This document shows positions 6,572 to 23,199 of a stretch of 64,000 bases of DNA, one piece after another. The stretch covers positions 128,001-192,000 of the forward strand of contig VMGC01000001.1 in NCBI GenBank assembly GCA_007376385.1, written 5' to 3'. A model generated the notes under the pieces. It was given only the letters and a program-made list of their open reading frames with translations, ran no database searches and was not told the origin of the DNA. The position numbers were made by a program, and so were the translations under genes. The stretch's first letter is position 1. Every line of letters begins with the position of its first letter. This stretch comes from Parcubacteria group bacterium Gr01-1014_8. GTDB lineage: Bacteria; Patescibacteriota; Minisyncoccia; Phycocordibacterales; UBA2100.

Positions 6572-6777
6572 AGAACCCTGCGCCAGAGAACGTAGGGTGT
6601 TAAGAAACGTCTTTCAATGCAGGACCGGGAGACCTTTCCCGGAATAGGAACGACCCGCCGGTCGCACGTATTTGAAAGCGCGTCCATTCATTCTTGCGGT
6701 AAAGCGCAACGTTCTGGATGCGACCAGTAGGAAATTGCGATAGACGTTTCGCGCGCTGCCTGTTATAAGACTAGTAC

Positions 6778-6848
6778 CCCCTGGTAGCTCAATGGTAGAG
6801 CAGCTGCCTTTTAAGCAGTTGACGGAGGTCCGATTCCTCCCCGGGGGA
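6778..6848 (+). tRNA. tRNA-Lys, anticodon TTT.
   Basis: A hand-folded cloverleaf gives acceptor CCCCTGG/CCGGGGG, D-arm GCTC-AATGGTA-GAGC and anticodon stem-loop GCTGC-CTTTTAA-GCAGT. The T-arm is GGAGG-TCCGATT-CCTCC with discriminator A. No CCA is encoded. Confidence 0.85.
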
Positions 6849-7023
6849 AAGTTTTTTAAACTTCACACGGGAGAAGCGTGCAATGCACGCTTCGTGAAGA
6901 ATCGGACGCCGGAGCGATGTTTTGTCAGCAGACAAAACCGCGAGGCGGTGCCCAGACAAACTTTTGCGACGGCAAAAGTTTAGTCGCGGGAGATTCCTCC
7001 CCGGGGGAAAGTTTTTTAAACTT
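6849..7023 (+). repeat. tRNA-3'-linked conserved element, copy 1 (E1). It ends in a 32-nt duplicate of the tRNA-Lys T-loop-to-trailer sequence.
   Basis: GATTCCTCCCCGGGGGAAAGTTTTTTAAACTT occurs at 6832-6863 and again at 6992-7023. The intervening element carries core motifs identical to those at 21857-21944: ACGCCGGAGCGATGT at 6906-6920, ACCGCGAGGCGGTGCCCAGAC at 6937-6957 and AGTCGCGGGAGA at 6982-6993. Between the cores are hairpins that differ in sequence but retain pairing. Confidence 0.6.
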
Positions 7024-7081
7024 TGTATTCCGCGAAACGGGAATTTCCTATGCGAGCGTTAGCGAACAGGAAATAGGGATT

Positions 7082-8068
7082 TTAGTACACGTACGCATCA
7101 ACAGTTCGCCCGTCGTCATCAAGCAGCCGAACAACATCACGCTGGTCGCGCCAGAGTGCAGAGTCCGACTCCAGATACAAACGCCACGCCTCACGATCAA
7201 ATGAAGAGCGCATGTAGTGGCGATTCATGCATCCATTGTAGGAGAGTGTATTTTGCAAGAATGAGCGACACGCGGGGGATACAATCGATGGGACTTGCTT
7301 AGGAAACTCACACGTCGGAATGCTGTATATAAAATCGAAACACGCATCGCCATATTGGGAAAGATTTTCGGGCGTAAGCGGCAATTCACCGGAGGGGGAT
7401 GGGCAATTCAACGAGAGTGCTGGTTCAAATGTCTGGAACTGCGATATGTAACCGGTGCAAATATTTTCTCTGAAAGAAACGCCAACCGGGGAGGCGCCGC
7501 TTGCGATTATCGCGTACGCACCCGGTTCGAGCGATACCGAATTAACGGCGTTCACTGAGCCTCCTCGAAGTGGAGATGCGGCGGGAGGAAGTGCGATCCG
7601 AACCCCGGTAAGGGCGCTTTGCAAGGACCATCCTTCAAGTGAAATAGGGGTTGTGTTTTCGGCGCTTGCTTCGATGACAATATATTCGGCAGGTATGTCG
7701 GATGTTTGAGGATTTGAATATGCGCCAGAAATGTGCACGCTCCGGAAATACGGAGACGGGTCGCCGAATGTCATAACATCGTTAGGATTGCCGATGATCT
7801 CTCCGTACTGTCCTCCGGTATTTTCGGATGTTTGATCCGGGTTTGCGTTTGCCCCCGCGGCGTCCGGTCCAAATAAATCTTCTTCCTCAATGAATGAAAA
7901 AATGTTCGATGGCTGCCAGGGAAGTGCAAAATCCGTGGATGTCGAACCGGCGAAAGAGAAACTTTTTACCTGCGCGAAAATGCGTTGCGGGCCTTTATTC
8001 AATATCCATATGACAACGAGCGAGAGAATAATGAAGGCGAAGAGAGCAAGGATTATTTGCCGTATCAT
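7082..8068 (-). CDS. Membrane-anchored lamin-tail-domain (LTD) protein.
   Basis: An N-terminal TM segment (IILALFAFIILSLVVIWIL) is present. The C-terminal LTD-like pattern is IVIEASAENTTPISLEGWSLQS...EPGAYAII. Confidence 0.55.
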   Translation of the reverse strand: MIRQIILALFAFIILSLVVIWILNKGPQRIFAQVKSFSFAGSTSTDFALPWQPSNIFSFIEEEDLFGPDAAGANANPDQTSENTGGQYGEIIGNPNDVMTFGDPSPYFRSVHISGAYSNPQTSDIPAEYIVIEASAENTTPISLEGWSLQSALTGVRIALPPAASPLRGGSVNAVNSVSLEPGAYAIIASGASPVGVSFRENICTGYISQFQTFEPALSLNCPSPSGELPLTPENLSQYGDACFDFIYSIPTCEFPKQVPSIVSPACRSFLQNTLSYNGCMNRHYMRSSFDREAWRLYLESDSALWRDQRDVVRLLDDDGRTVDAYVY

Positions 8069-8072
8069 GCAC

Positions 8073-9338
8073 TTATACTACCGCACTCACGCCGCTCTTT
8101 TGCAGTTTCTCCAGCTCTTCCCTGGCAACTCCTGAATCGCTCCATGGTATTTTTGTTCCGCGCGGACCGTATATGCAGGGATCGGTACCTTTTCCTGTTA
8201 TAAGCACCGTATCGCTAGAGCGCGCGAGCTGGAGCGCATGCCTGATTGCTTCGCGGCGGTCCATACGAATTTCAGGAGACCTTTTCATGCCACGAGCAAG
8301 GCCCTCTACTATCGAGCGAGGATCTTCATCGCACGGGTCTTCGTTCGTCAAAATGACTGTTTCGCACATCCCATCAGCAATACTCCCCATCACGGGCCTT
8401 TTCCATATATCCCTGCCGCCGCCCATAGAACCGAGCACACAAATCTTTCGGCCGCGATATGCGCTGTAAATGGCGGCCAGGGAATCCGGCGTGTGCGCGT
8501 AATCAACAATGACGGTGAAATTTTGTCCTGCTTCCACGCGCTCCGCGCGCCCGGGTATATGCTTTAGCGAATCGAGGCCGCGAGCGATGACAGACGTTTT
8601 TATCTTCATAAGACGCGCCAGTGTCGCTGCCGCGAGGGCATTCGTTATGGAAAATGCACCGGGCAAATGTATGCGCAGTTCCTCTGTATCAAATTGGAAT
8701 ACGCCGCCGCGTTCATCCGTTGTCCATGAATCAAGAGAAGAAAGAGCGAATGGGATACAATGCTCTACTTGTAATCCCAGGAAACGAGAAGCCTGCGCGT
8801 CATCGGAGTTTGCCAGCATGTAGCGAGGTCTTTTGTGCGAACGTTCAAGCTGCAGTCCCAGCTGGAGTTTTGCATTGGCGTACTTTTGCAGTGACCCGTG
8901 GGATTCAATGTGTTCCGGTGCAAGGTTCAGAAAGATAAGCGCGTTCAGTTCGATTGCGCGATGACGATGTTGCCGGGCGCCTTCTGATGTCATTTCAATA
9001 AATGCAATGTTGCATCCTGCCCTCGATGCCAGGTAGAGGAATTTTTGGGTGAAAAAACGGCCCCCCATTGTCATGCGCATTAGATTCGGCTCAGAGTGCG
9101 AATCGATTTTCATTCTGATAGTGCTCACGAGCGCAGTTTTGTAGCCGGCTTCTTCAAAAATGGCGTTCAAAAATTCGATAGTGCTGGACTTGCCTTTCGT
9201 GCCAGTTACACCGACAACCATAAGTTCACGAGACGGAAACGCATACAGAGCGGCAGCGAACCACGCGAGAATGAAGTGATATGCAGAAAAAATTGGCGAT
9301 GGTATGACAGCGTGCAGGAGATTCTTCAAGGATCCCAT
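8073..9338 (-). CDS. murE: Mur ligase family protein, MurE-like UDP-N-acetylmuramoyl-tripeptide synthetase.
   Basis: Motifs include the P-loop GVTGTKGKSST, VDYAHTPDSL and LITGKGTD. The track ORF extends to 9524. The in-frame ATG at 9338 (MGSLKNLLHAV...) gives a typical N-terminus and a 4-nt gap to ruvA. Confidence 0.7.
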   Translation of the reverse strand: MGSLKNLLHAVIPSPIFSAYHFILAWFAAALYAFPSRELMVVGVTGTKGKSSTIEFLNAIFEEAGYKTALVSTIRMKIDSHSEPNLMRMTMGGRFFTQKFLYLASRAGCNIAFIEMTSEGARQHRHRAIELNALIFLNLAPEHIESHGSLQKYANAKLQLGLQLERSHKRPRYMLANSDDAQASRFLGLQVEHCIPFALSSLDSWTTDERGGVFQFDTEELRIHLPGAFSITNALAAATLARLMKIKTSVIARGLDSLKHIPGRAERVEAGQNFTVIVDYAHTPDSLAAIYSAYRGRKICVLGSMGGGRDIWKRPVMGSIADGMCETVILTNEDPCDEDPRSIVEGLARGMKRSPEIRMDRREAIRHALQLARSSDTVLITGKGTDPCIYGPRGTKIPWSDSGVAREELEKLQKSGVSAVV

Positions 9339-21627: not shown

Positions 21628-21698
21628 CCCCCGTAGTTTAATGGATAAAACAGCGGACTTCTAAGCCGTTGATCGAGGTTCGATTCCTCGCGGGGGCA
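21627..21698 (+). tRNA. tRNA-Arg, anticodon TCT.
   Basis: The acceptor is GCCCCCG/CGGGGGC and the D-arm is GTTT-AATGGATA-AAAC. The anticodon loop is CTTCTAA. The T-arm is CGAGG-TTCGATT-CCTCG with discriminator A. Confidence 0.8.
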
Positions 21699-21720
21699 AA
21701 AAAATGTATAGTAGGAGTTC

Positions 21721-21793
21721 GGGCGGTTAGCTCAGTTGGTAGAGCAACCCCTTTACACGGGGAAGGTCACAGGTTCGAGTCCTGTATCGCCCA
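21721..21793 (+). tRNA. tRNA-Val, anticodon TAC.
   Basis: The acceptor is GGGCGGT/ATCGCCC and the D-arm is GCTC-AGTTGGTA-GAGC. The anticodon stem-loop is ACCCC-TTTACAC-GGGGA. The T-arm is ACAGG-TTCGAGT-CCTGT with discriminator A. Confidence 0.85.
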
Positions 21794-21960
21794 CAAAATA
21801 GTAAACTATTTTGTGGCGGTAAGTGCGCAAACTGATTTGCGCACGTCAGGACGAGAACGCCGGAGCGATGTCGCGCGAGGACGCGCGACCGCGAGGCGGT
21901 GCCCAGACCGAGGCGAGCGGCGGCGAGCGGAGAGTCGCGGGAGAGTCCTGTATCGCCCAC
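21794..21960 (+). repeat. tRNA-3'-linked conserved element, copy 2 (E2). It ends in an 18-nt duplicate of tRNA-Val positions 57-74.
   Basis: GAGTCCTGTATCGCCCAC occurs at 21777-21794 and again at 21943-21960. The element carries core motifs identical to E1: ACGCCGGAGCGATGT at 21857-21871, ACCGCGAGGCGGTGCCCAGAC at 21888-21908 and AGTCGCGGGAGA at 21933-21944. Confidence 0.6.
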
Positions 21961-22004
21961 TCTGGTTTGATAATGGTCCAGCGGTGTGTTACAGTCCTGG
22001 CCGT

Positions 22005-22451
22005 ATGGTTGCTAATAAAGTCGTTGTTTCTCCAGTCGACATGACCGCGCGAAAGGCGCTTGACGTGCGTCCGGGTGATACCGTGCGCGTGTTCCAAAAG
22101 ATAGAGGAGGAAAAGGGGAAGTACCGTCTTCAAGCGTTTGAAGGGTTGGTGTTGGCGCGAAAACACGGCACTGAAGCTGGCGCGACGTTCACTGTGCGAA
22201 AAGTGACAAGCGGTGTCGGTGTTGAAAAGATATTTCCGCTCTATTCTCCAATGATAGATAAAGTCGAGATAGTAAAGCGTGCTCGAGTGCGCCGTGCGAA
22301 GCTCTATTATATTCGAGACAAAGTTGCTCGCGAAGCGCGCCGACAACTTCGCCGCGCGAAAGTCGTGGTCCCGTTGCAAGGCGAAGTGGTTCTCGACGAT
22401 GCGGCCGAACCTGTCGCTGAAGAAGTTGGAACTCCAGAGAAAAGTGAGTAA
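22005..22451 (+). CDS. rplS: 50S ribosomal protein L19.
   Basis: VRPGDTVRVFQKIEEEKGKYRLQAFEGLVLARKHG...FTVRKVTSGVGVEKIFPLYSP is the L19 signature. The track ORF 21669..22451 has a spurious N-terminal extension across tRNA-Val. The real start is the ATG at 22005 (MVANKVVV). Confidence 0.85.
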   Translation: MVANKVVVSPVDMTARKALDVRPGDTVRVFQKIEEEKGKYRLQAFEGLVLARKHGTEAGATFTVRKVTSGVGVEKIFPLYSPMIDKVEIVKRARVRRAKLYYIRDKVAREARRQLRRAKVVVPLQGEVVLDDAAEPVAEEVGTPEKSE

Positions 22452-22521
22452 TCAGGGGGCCTCTTTTTATTTGTCCACAACTGGTAGACGCTATATACTT
22501 GAGTTATGTTATATTTGTGCG

Positions 22522-23199
22522 ATGGGGAAGCGAGGACCCAAGCCTGGATTCAAAATTACACGTCGTGTCTCAGAGAAATGGACGCCGGAATTAGCATATG
22601 CGATCGGGCTTCTTGCGACAGACGGTTGTCTTGCGCGGCACCAGTCGCTAATTGATCTGACGTCAAAAGATCAGGAGCAATTGAAGAATTTCTCAAAGTG
22701 TATTGGAATTCCACTTTTCATCGGCACGAAATTTGGTAGTCACCATAAGGGCGTATATTACAGAGTTCAATTTAAGAATCTCATCTTCTATAACTTTCTC
22801 CTCTCCGTTGGTCTGACGCCGGCAAAATCGAAAACGATGGGAGCGCTTGGGGTTCCGAAAGAATATTTCTGGGACTTTCTTCGCGGATCTTACGATGGTG
22901 ATGGATGTTCATATTCATATTGGGATCCACGATGGAAATCGAGTTTTATGTTTTACACGAGTTTTGTTTCCGCGAGTCGAGAGCATATTGATTGGTTGCA
23001 AAAAGAGATTTTTGCGCGGCTCAAAATCACTGGGCACATCACGCAGGCTAAAAGAAATATCTTGTACCAACTTAAGTACGCAAAAAGTGATTCCCTGAAG
23101 TTACTGAAAAAAATGTATCACTCGAGTAAAGTTATTTGTCTTTCGCGAAAAAGATTGAAAATAGAGCGAATTTTGAGTACAGTTAGCGAGAAGCTGTAA
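22522..23199 (+). CDS. LAGLIDADG homing endonuclease, double-motif and free-standing.
   Basis: Two LAGLIDADG motifs are present: YAIGLLATDGCL and FLRGSYDGDGCS. The region is AT-rich. The gene ends 10 nt before tRNA-Leu. Confidence 0.75.
   Translation: MGKRGPKPGFKITRRVSEKWTPELAYAIGLLATDGCLARHQSLIDLTSKDQEQLKNFSKCIGIPLFIGTKFGSHHKGVYYRVQFKNLIFYNFLLSVGLTPAKSKTMGALGVPKEYFWDFLRGSYDGDGCSYSYWDPRWKSSFMFYTSFVSASREHIDWLQKEIFARLKITGHITQAKRNILYQLKYAKSDSLKLLKKMYHSSKVICLSRKRLKIERILSTVSEKL

Follow-up and report, generated by a model that had tools for sequence, protein, structure and literature searches.

Among the elements known to settle in transfer RNA (tRNA) genes, integrative elements reportedly include a class whose attachment (att) sites lie in the tRNA T-loop. 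Within the Patescibacteria, tRNA genes also host group I introns, which interrupt the anticodon loop (position 35/36), exceed 200 nt, match the Rfam group I models and need splicing (PMC13011429). In Escherichia coli, the tyrT-tyrV-rttR locus carries RtT units, which are involved in the processing of the tyrT transcript and possibly in the stringent response, and whose function is still unclear (bioRxiv 10.1101/2024.07.17.603846). Here, we analyze two elements, E1 (6849-7023) and E2 (21795-21960), that follow an intact tRNA-Lys and an intact tRNA-Val gene, respectively, in a 64,000-nt stretch of DNA (hereafter, the window) from Parcubacteria group bacterium Gr01-1014_8 (GCA_007376385.1, contig VMGC01000001.1, positions 128,001 to 192,000). 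E1 and E2, both of them old copies, belong to a phylum-wide family that lacks open reading frames (ORFs) and sits on the 3' ends of tRNA genes, with a fold under selection and with flanks templated on the host gene.

The nearest likeness to this family is found at the E. coli locus (NC_000913.3, 1286000-1288200), where 178-nt units each end in a copy of tRNA-Tyr positions 59-76 (AATCCTTCCCCCACCACCA) and an internal GGGGAAGGAT pairs with this copy, closing a branched fold. Like the Patescibacteria elements, RtT (RF00391) lies directly 3' of a same-strand tRNA, forms tandem units, and combines a distal T-loop-to-3'-end copy with an internal complement, a likeness that concerns layout only. There is no homology between the two, as the RtT model matches the E. 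coli locus only, while our own covariance model (R1) reaches at most 5.5 bits there. Further, RtT is attached to one tRNA in enterobacteria, whereas the family described here occurs at ~40 tRNA species with matched flanks; the RtT copy includes CCA and leaves the acceptor strand single-stranded, whereas the arms of the Patescibacteria elements pair with the acceptor strand and the trailer; and RtT holds the small tpr ORF, whereas the Patescibacteria elements hold none. RtT is an analogue and not a member of the family. The Rfam RtT model recognizes four copies in the E. coli locus, three of them after tyrV and the fourth between tyrT and tyrV (positions 1364-1495 of our extract, L152), of which the E. 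coli record annotates a single unit as rttR.

Comparison with mobile elements yields a similar mixture of likeness and difference. With integrative elements that target tRNA genes, the family shares a repeat of the tRNA 3' end that begins in the T-loop, a regenerated tRNA, a displaced far copy, and reusable slots with turnover. It departs from them in that the insert measures ~130-170 nt without an integrase or any other gene, that its conserved part is a covarying single-strand fold, that it carries an inverted copy of the target, and that one family fits many tRNAs. Miniature inverted-repeat transposable elements (MITEs) and repetitive extragenic palindromic (REP)-type repeats are likewise short, noncoding, multicopy, strongly folding and intergenic, with decayed copies and tandem or nested ones, but the inverted “ends” of the elements studied here vary with the host tRNA, their repeat is not the fixed short target duplication of a transposon, and near-identical copies within a genome are lacking. 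The group I introns reside in the same phylum, are RNA elements of tRNA genes, and mostly lack homing-endonuclease genes (PMC13011429), whereas E1 and E2 follow an intact tRNA, match no intron model, and are dispensable for the tRNA. The element is not an obligatory intron.

Searches of the existing catalogs returned little else. When the window and six loci from the Candidate Phyla Radiation (CPR) were compared with Rfam, only tRNA passed the gathering score, and the RtT model had no match. For positions 6700-7100, a cmscan search at E<=10 returned only tRNA and chance matches to two unrelated short models, with no Rfam match to the known small self-cleaving ribozymes (hammerhead, hepatitis delta virus [HDV]-like, twister, twister-sister, pistol, hatchet and hairpin). 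Group I intron models gave no match, the host tRNAs being uninterrupted, and ARAGORN found no transfer-messenger RNA (tmRNA) in the window. A likeness of GAACGCCGGAGCG and of a ACGAAGUGA cap motif to 5S rRNA, noticed by eye, was treated as chance, since the Rfam 5S model did not match. Full-text literature searches found no description of this element family. The family is new and uncatalogued, and E. coli RtT is the sole analogue found. The junction fold described below would be compatible with a riboswitch-like aptamer.

The original prediction, which had been drawn from E1 and E2 alone, proposed a novel element linked to tRNA genes, and both its novelty with respect to Rfam and its tRNA linkage extend to the family as a whole. 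Specifically, the exact 21-mer of core block 2 occurs in 31 contigs of a one-genome-per-species collection, all of them from Patescibacteria metagenome-assembled genomes (MAGs; Saccharibacteria, Paceibacteria, and relatives) except for two contigs of one MAG labeled Bdellovibrionales. A degenerate core pattern matched at least 120 metagenome loci, and a hidden Markov model of the core recovered 193 copies in 152 Patescibacteria sequences. A same-strand tRNA lies within 450 nt upstream of 168 of these copies; another 14 are placed at a contig edge, and for the remaining 11, no tRNA could be detected. The element, which accompanies ~40 isoacceptor types, follows 153 of the 282 tRNAs in the collected loci (a biased sample) and all five tRNAs of locus L006. 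The elements are ~150-190 nt long and contain no ORF. ORF clustering revealed no recurrent neighbor protein in ~150 loci, only syntenic housekeeping genes and spurious ORFs called across the element, and no integrase was found near these loci, the rest of the genome not having been searched. The degenerate pattern had no match in viral contigs, nor did BLAST find one in phage and plasmid collections.

Some copies without a called tRNA have upstream sequence of their own. Four of the 11 tRNA-less copies (in L029, L093, L100, and L148) are preceded by a shared GGTTCGAAC...CGCAG motif, written more fully as GGTTCGAACATC(C/G)T(C/T)CA...CGCAG, which lies ~60-120 nt upstream of the element. Read on the opposite strand, where it falls within short ORFs that are not related beyond it, the motif gives (E/N)D(V/I)RT. 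It may be coding sequence, a further element, or an aberrant gene resembling tRNA-Gln. A further copy among the 11, in L080 (~1250-1390), comes after what looks like the 3' half of a tRNA not called by ARAGORN; the extra sequence preceding this half may, as a guess, be a group I intron of the type known from anticodon position 35/36 in Patescibacteria (PMC13011429).

The fold of the core was derived from an alignment of 118 copies, using pair counts and RNAalifold. It is a three-way junction composed of a closing helix (P1) and two arms, P2 with its terminal hairpin hp1 and P3 with hp2, separated by a GU junction (J2/3). The P2 consensus consists of CGCC:GGCG, an internal loop GGA/GA, GCG:CGC, an AU bulge, and a fully variable 6-bp hairpin (hp1), while that of P3 consists of CCC:GGG, an internal loop A/G(C or A), GAC:GUC, and a variable hp2 with a GACG loop. 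With this fold, the three blocks that had been noted as identical “cores” in E1 and E2 are seen to be the junction, the inner helices, and their loops. Of the cells, 93.1% are paired, compared with 73.2% in shuffles and 35-49% when the partners are slid, and the covariation score is 0.537, compared with 0.172 and 0.07-0.12, respectively. Cells in which both sides of a pair have changed number 855, a count reached in 0 of 500 shuffles.

Compensation also extends into the seemingly invariant blocks, where CGCC:GGCG is replaced by CAGC:GCUG (34-47 sequences) or UGGC:GCCA, CCC:GGG by CCU:AGG, and GAC:GUC by GAG:CUC. The core loops and junctions are nearly invariant, and the helices covary heavily. 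G·U pairs outnumber A·C mismatches in the core (47 versus 21), which identifies the folded strand as the tRNA-sense strand. A mutual-information scan for pseudoknots or tertiary pairs found nested helices only. An alternative pairing between CCGCGA of core 2 and UCGCGG of core 3, raised in the original prediction, did not hold up, because the C of core 3 is C or A in about half of the copies each, without compensation; this variable position sits in the internal loop of helix P3. The more general proposal, that selection acts on a nucleic acid fold and that the two copies are not a recent duplication, gains strong support from the 118 aligned members: the core is under selection as a single-strand fold.

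Outside the core, the element is made from the tRNA gene that it follows. Every copy is laid out as an intact tRNA, a short spacer, one or more antisense arms, the three-way-junction core, and a distal direct copy of the tRNA tail. The antisense arms had escaped the original prediction, and they make the element a hairpin-like mimic of the tRNA acceptor/T-arm helix. Specifically, the arm located 5' of core 1 is, in every copy, the reverse complement of positions 53-65 of its own tRNA, far above the control, and it tracks the T-loop variant, as tRNAs with TCCGATT are followed by AATCGGAC and those with TTCAATT by AATTGAAC. In the type I elements, a conserved hairpin (hp0; ~GCAAGCNAACUGCUUNGCUUGC) precedes this T-arm antisense arm, and a second arm, at a fixed distance directly 5' of hp0, is the complement of the acceptor 3' strand (positions 66-75). 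The acceptor arm is exact in 21% of copies, compared with 0.8% in a permuted control, and has at most one mismatch in 45%, compared with 12%. Together, the arm, hp0, the other arm, and the distal copy resemble the acceptor/T-arm stack of a tRNA, in which hp0 takes the place of the D and anticodon arms and the 105-nt junction that of the T-loop.

The resemblance is not that of a faithful copy. Where the acceptor stem contains a wobble or a mismatch, the arm does not reproduce the 5' strand but complements the 3' strand by Watson-Crick pairing, as seen in 8 of 10 informative stems; at T-stems, it follows the 3'-strand complement in 15 cases and the alternative in 5; and G3:U70 of tRNA-Ala becomes A:U in the element. 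In 29 of 35 copies, the complementarity of the arm extends 1-23 nt into the genomic trailer. In the three bases beside the arm, 21 of the 35 copies agree with genomic positions 73-75, and 1 of 35 agrees with the discriminator plus CC. Hence, the Watson-Crick fit and the trailer match indicate that the arm was templated on the gene or the primary transcript and not on the mature tRNA. Two candidate roles were rejected in this context. As a faithful tRNA mimic for synthetases, or an aminoacylated tRNA-like structure, the element fails because G3:U70 becomes A:U and because positions 73-75 are usually paired. As the primer-binding site of a retroelement for a mature tRNA, the arm fails because it matches the trailer and because a CCA-type match occurs in only 1 of 35 copies.

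Most distal copies end 0-2 nt beyond the tRNA end, their start falling at positions 56-60, and many are shortened or interrupted. The repeat ranges from 5-10 to 64 nt, with a mode of 17-21. The original prediction had placed the crossover at position 57, which is the case for both window tRNAs but is only one of several starting points in the family. Where the proximal and distal copies differ, the arm agrees with the real tRNA in 71 cases, with the distal copy in 7, and with neither in 9. As the arm follows the real tRNA and the distal copy decays, the upstream tRNA with its proximal tail is the working gene. The integrity of the distal copy showed no association with that of the arm or with a terminator in the spacer. 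The spacer itself is often a palindrome continuous with the arm helix, frequently a terminator-like hairpin, and in other copies a mini-hairpin with a GNA triloop (GCGAAGC, ACGAAGU). A simple scan found a terminator-like hairpin between tRNA and element in 27 of 84 copies and none in the other 57, and many copies have one after the element. On the simplest reading of these sequence comparisons, the arm and the distal copy would have been exact images of the resident tRNA at birth and would later have decayed independently, with the tRNA remaining fixed.

The two window copies illustrate this anatomy (Table 1). ARAGORN identifies seven tRNA genes in the window, two of which are followed by an element, and both host tRNAs are intact (68-70 bits with the Rfam tRNA model). 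The family covariance model scores these two sites alone across the 64 kb, at 119.9 bits and 100.8 bits, so that E1 and E2 are the sole family copies in the window. The tRNAs, repeats, blocks, hairpins, and palindromes of the original prediction are all present where it had placed them. Specifically, core blocks 1 to 3 occur exactly twice each and in the same order in E1 and E2 (shuffles of the window predict 0.00 matches for the 21-mer), E1 ends in a 32-nt perfect repeat (GATTCCTCCCCGGGGGAAAGTTTTTTAAACTT) that starts at tRNA position 57, and AT palindromes directly follow both tRNAs. The 16-nt hairpins (TTTGTC-AGCA-GACAAA in E1 and CGCGCG-AGGA-CGCGCG in E2) and the upstream GC hairpins (hp0) differ in sequence with their pairing kept. 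Outside the flanks, E1 and E2 are only 66% identical.

The T-loop of the tRNA-Lys that hosts E1 (6829-6835) reads TCCGATT, with a C at position 55 in place of the near-universal U55 (pseudouridine), which accounts for GGAC instead of GAAC in the antisense arm of E1. The same variant TCC T-loop is found in tRNA-Gly genes of L006 and in a tRNA-Arg of L019. The antisense arm of E1 pairs with the distal copy as P1, whose 3' strand occupies 6992-6999; no acceptor antisense arm is recognizable 5' of its hp0. Core 2 is shared between its two arms, the first half lying in P2 together with core 1 and the second half in P3 together with most of core 3. A terminator-like score falls on positions 6834-6848 plus the following T run. 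In E2, the T-arm antisense arm pairs through CAGGAC with GUCCUG (positions 60-65), and its AAC is antisense to GUU (53-55). The minimum free energy (MFE) structure of E2 alone reproduces the complete family model. No terminator separates tRNA-Val from E2, which is followed by a promoter-like site for rplS.

Table 1. Features of E1, E2, and their host tRNA genes, in window coordinates
Feature	Position	Strand	Basis
tRNA-Lys(UUU), intact, host of E1	6778-6848	+	ARAGORN; Rfam tRNA, 70 bits
S1 of E1, proximal repeat copy (tRNA-Lys 57-73 plus 15 nt of trailer)	6832-6863	+	Sequence
AT palindrome (“cap”) of E1, equal to the trailer	6849-6863	+	Sequence
hp0 of E1, 9-bp hairpin GAAGCGUGC-AAU-GCACGCUUC	6873-6893	+	Sequence, fold, family alignment
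Antisense arm of E1, GAAGAATCGGAC, reverse complement of tRNA-Lys 53-64 (11/12 match)	6896-6907	+	Sequence, alignment
P2 arm of E1: CGCC:GGCG, internal loop GGA/GA, GCG:CGC, AU bulge, hp1 (6919-6938)	6907-6947	+	RNAalifold, pair counts, MFE fold
P3 arm of E1: CCC:GGG, internal loop A/GC, GAC:GUC, hp2 (6958-6981, loop GACG)	6950-6990	+	RNAalifold, pair counts, MFE fold
S2 of E1, distal direct copy (tRNA-Lys 57-73 with the 15-nt trailer repeated)	6992-7023	+	Sequence
tRNA-Val(UAC), intact, host of E2 (position 73 at 21793)	21721-21794	+	ARAGORN; Rfam
Cap hairpin (AT palindrome) of E2, AAAAUAG-UAAA-CUAUUUU	21795-21812	+	Sequence, MFE fold
Acceptor antisense arm of E2, GUGGCGGUA, pairing with UAUCGCC-CAC of the tRNA 3' strand or the distal copy	21813-21821	+	MFE fold; family statistics
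hp0 of E2, GUGCGCAAA-CUGA-UUUGCGCAC	21823-21844	+	Sequence, MFE fold
T-arm antisense arm of E2, CAGGACGAGAAC	21847-21858	+	Sequence, MFE fold
P2 arm of E2, with hp1	21858-21898	+	Alignment, MFE fold
P3 arm of E2, with hp2 of a G·A-rich variant	21902-21941	+	Alignment, MFE fold
S2 of E2, distal direct copy (18 nt) of tRNA-Val 57-74, GAGTCCTGTATCGCCCAC	21943-21960	+	Sequence

Pfam showed no relevant partner among the genes neighboring E1 and E2, which encode a SpoU methylase, a Mur ligase, ribosomal protein L19, and a LAGLIDADG-like ORF. The latter (306 aa, 22279-23199, + strand) lies between rplS and tRNA-Leu(GAG) and, as called, overlaps the 3' end of rplS by ~170 nt; a syntenic LAGLIDADG-like gene of 223 aa is present in the relatives L153 and L155. 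A 260-aa ORF (21669-22451, + strand) runs over tRNA-Val, E2, and rplS, its real part being only 22005-22451 (L19), and gene callers likewise set a 234-aa “gene” on the equivalent region of L153 and L155.

Comparison of related genomes revealed that the occupancy of a given tRNA site changes. Between L006 and L111, five orthologous tRNAs were compared. Gly(UCC) is followed in both by near-identical elements that differ in a compensatory manner, while at Arg(UCG), the cap, hp0, and P3/hp2 modules have been exchanged for versions seen in paralogues. Pro(UGG) carries a type I element in one genome and an unrelated 70-nt insert plus a copy of the 49-73 tail in the other, and Arg(CCG) carries a degenerate type I element as opposed to a different core type. 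At the tRNA-Val/rplS site, the window has E2, L154 has two other subtypes in tandem, and L153 and L155 have no element; in the latter two (L153, 1570-1642; L155, 1534-1606), tRNA-Val(UAC) is inverted relative to the window and L154, with its 3' end 11 nt from tRNA-Arg. Tandem arrays occur in L036, L040, L047, L048, and L106, and nested remnants occur in L138, L015, and L030. The other core types retain the same succession of sense segment, spacer, antisense segment, core, and sense segment, and some of them match the type I model weakly (27-38 bits), which suggests that they are probably distant relatives of type I.

Other insertions were also observed at these tRNA genes. The tRNA tail is duplicated from the anticodon loop to the 3' end in L005 (~1755-1850) and, between tRNA-Ala and the element, in L104, and positions 49-73 of tRNA-Pro are duplicated after the unrelated 70-nt insert of L111 (~9165-9330). 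These partial duplications look like footprints of other insertions into tRNA genes. A short insert ending in GTAC(T/A)GGTCCTGTAAGGA(CC) is found within the T-loop-like TTCGA in L003 (~1066-1090), in L062 upstream of the element, and in L147 (~790-812), and the TTCGA sites hit by it include the antisense arm or the distal copy of elements, so that insertions of more than one kind seem to target T-loop DNA. Among near-identical contigs, the only length difference is that between L061 and L097, which is due to a putative GIY-YIG gene at a tRNA 5' end. This insert of ~335 nt (L097, ~195-528), which encodes an apparent small GIY-YIG-type nuclease (translated by eye) at the 5' end of tRNA-Thr(UGU) and has a 10-nt duplication (GCCACCTTAG), is missing from the otherwise 95-99% identical L061.

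We tentatively favor, at somewhat less than even confidence, the reading that the family consists of nonautonomous insertion-type elements of tRNA-gene 3' ends that act as a folded single strand, probably an RNA co-transcribed with the tRNA. Site turnover, subtypes that compete for one slot, arrays, remnants, a repeat of the integration type, and the relic-like decay of the flanks all speak for insertion. In such a scheme, the element would enter, or be copied into, the segment of a tRNA gene between T-loop and 3' end, and the segment would be duplicated, so that the tRNA stays functional. The same insertion process would re-template the arm of the element on the target tRNA, and the conserved junction would be recognized by the machinery that propagates or maintains the element. 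The acting form would be the tRNA-sense folded single strand, most probably RNA read through from the tRNA, and in the transcript, the arm and the distal copy would close the junction in a long helix resembling the acceptor/T-arm stack of a tRNA.

Several observations weigh against this insertion-type reading. Old copies with perfect cores in deletion-prone mini-genomes look more like in-place purifying selection, and hence like a host function, and tRNA-Pro(UGG) is among the tRNA sites occupied in many lineages. Paralogues within a locus are 0.75 identical, compared with 0.72 for copies between loci, and since copies within a genome are no more alike, there is no sign of a recent burst of transposition. 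The element has no linked transposase, integrase, or reverse transcriptase. Near-identical contigs yielded no filled/empty pair, so that insertion has to be read from more distant comparisons. In addition, every locus was collected via the core, which makes the contrast in conservation between core and flanks partly an effect of ascertainment. Finally, we know of no mechanism by which a target would be copied both directly and in inverted form, with the conserved hairpin hp0 placed inside the inverted copy. A bolder reading, which we consider rather improbable, would posit a protein-less, guide-bearing class of mobile RNA or single-stranded DNA that homes to the tRNA T-loop/3' end and has its guide arm rewritten for each target; the junction would then be a small ribozyme or a handle for a host enzyme, and the direct and inverted copies would be the footprint of an undescribed insertion chemistry.

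The main rival, a less likely but still serious candidate, is a host noncoding RNA of tRNA operons, a functional analogue of E. coli RtT that would be co-transcribed with the tRNA. Its 5' end would be freed by tRNA 3' processing, the helix of arm and distal copy would close and stabilize it, and the junction would bind a conserved protein or ligand, with spread and homogenization occurring only through duplication and gene conversion between tRNA loci. The layout is like that of tyrT-tyrV-rttR, the core has stayed constant through the replacement of every variable stem, both between E1 and E2 and among paralogues, which points to long purifying selection, and orthologous L006/L111 copies differ in a compensatory manner. 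A host RNA would also fit the presence of the element at all five tRNAs of the L006 locus, the excess of G·U over A·C on the tRNA-sense strand, and the many copies with no terminator before the element (57 of 84) or with one after it. It is harder to reconcile with close relatives in which the same tRNA is followed by another subtype, by an unrelated insert, or by nothing of the kind, with the truncation or nesting of many copies, and with the terminator-like hairpin that precedes the element in about one-third of them. Further, the two strands of the closing helix have decayed each on its own, with no compensation of one by the other, the arm tracks the real tRNA (71 versus 7), and the tRNA-like helix is unfaithful (G3:U70 becomes A:U, and the discriminator is paired). 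The succession of sense, antisense, and sense segments, in which the antisense one doubles as the 5' strand of the junction-closing helix, could alternatively make the element a cis-acting RNA switch on the maturation of the upstream tRNA, an idea to which we assign only a small chance. The arm would pair either with the 3' half of the real tRNA, blocking its folding or processing, or with the distal decoy as P1, closing an aptamer-like junction, and a ligand or protein would decide between the two. In line with this, the arm complements the real tRNA (53-75) more fully than it does the distal copy (57-74), and the same core occurs at several tRNAs per genome. Yet the distal copy is often decayed where the arm is kept, and the reverse, with no association between the two, so that the tRNA would be under constant attack or the switch would no longer work; moreover, terminators often precede the arm, the tRNA folds before the arm is made, and no ligand or expression logic is known.

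Two further explanations strike us as quite improbable. The original prediction had left open whether the element is a noncoding RNA or the att end of a miniature integrative element, and the second option, in its fuller form, holds that the copies are remnants or miniatures of a classical double-stranded integrative element with a tyrosine integrase elsewhere, the repeats being attL/attR cores and the blocks protein-binding arm sites, with no role for RNA. The repeat from the T-loop to the tRNA end, which resembles what is said to be the T-loop class of tRNA att sites, the turnover of sites, and the other tRNA-tail duplications in the same loci, from the anticodon loop (L005, L104) or position 49 (L111), agree with that option. 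What stands against it is that protein-binding sites in double-stranded DNA need no covarying hairpins and give no bias of G·U over A·C, that a fixed attP cannot place the same core at ~40 tRNA species with matching flanks, and that it leaves the antisense arms unexplained; to this may be added the length of only ~150-190 nt, the absence of an integrase near ~150 loci, and the absence of a match in viral contigs, phages, or plasmids. The other explanation is a ribozyme-type “T-loop mini-intron,” whose arm would serve as an internal guide over the 56/57 junction, GAAC pairing with positions 53-56 and the remaining arm with 57-72. This pairing would bring the 5' body of the tRNA into register with the distal tail for cleavage and ligation or reverse splicing, catalyzed by the three-way junction. 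An arm that spans both sides of the repeat boundary and tracks T-loop variants (GGAC with TCC), unit ends that are brought together at the junction, highly conserved junction and loop nucleotides, and the lack of a linked protein would be expected of such an intron. The tRNA, however, is complete without splicing, and distal copies are often lost. No known ribozyme family matched, even at E<=10, and covariation revealed neither a pseudoknot nor tertiary pairs. To become fixed in the genome, such an intron would depend on a reverse transcriptase, and none is linked. The template of the arm was the gene or its primary transcript, not the mature tRNA.

The genomes of Patescibacteria are tiny and streamlined, and yet most tRNA genes in some of their loci carry an appendage of ~170 nt with a core in which almost every base is conserved between classes. 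Whichever reading applies, the family affects the annotation of tRNA genes, given the spurious ORFs called across the element (such as the 260-aa ORF that covers E2), and bears on how tRNA 3' ends and terminators are read in CPR genomes. If the element is a host RNA, it would be a phylum-wide structured RNA absent from Rfam, and it would provide the long-unexplained RtT of E. coli with numerous analogues for comparison. Should it be a parasite, it would be a gene-less mobile element that spares the tRNA of its host by duplicating the tail, with a target-templated antisense arm that known mechanisms of transposition or integration do not explain.

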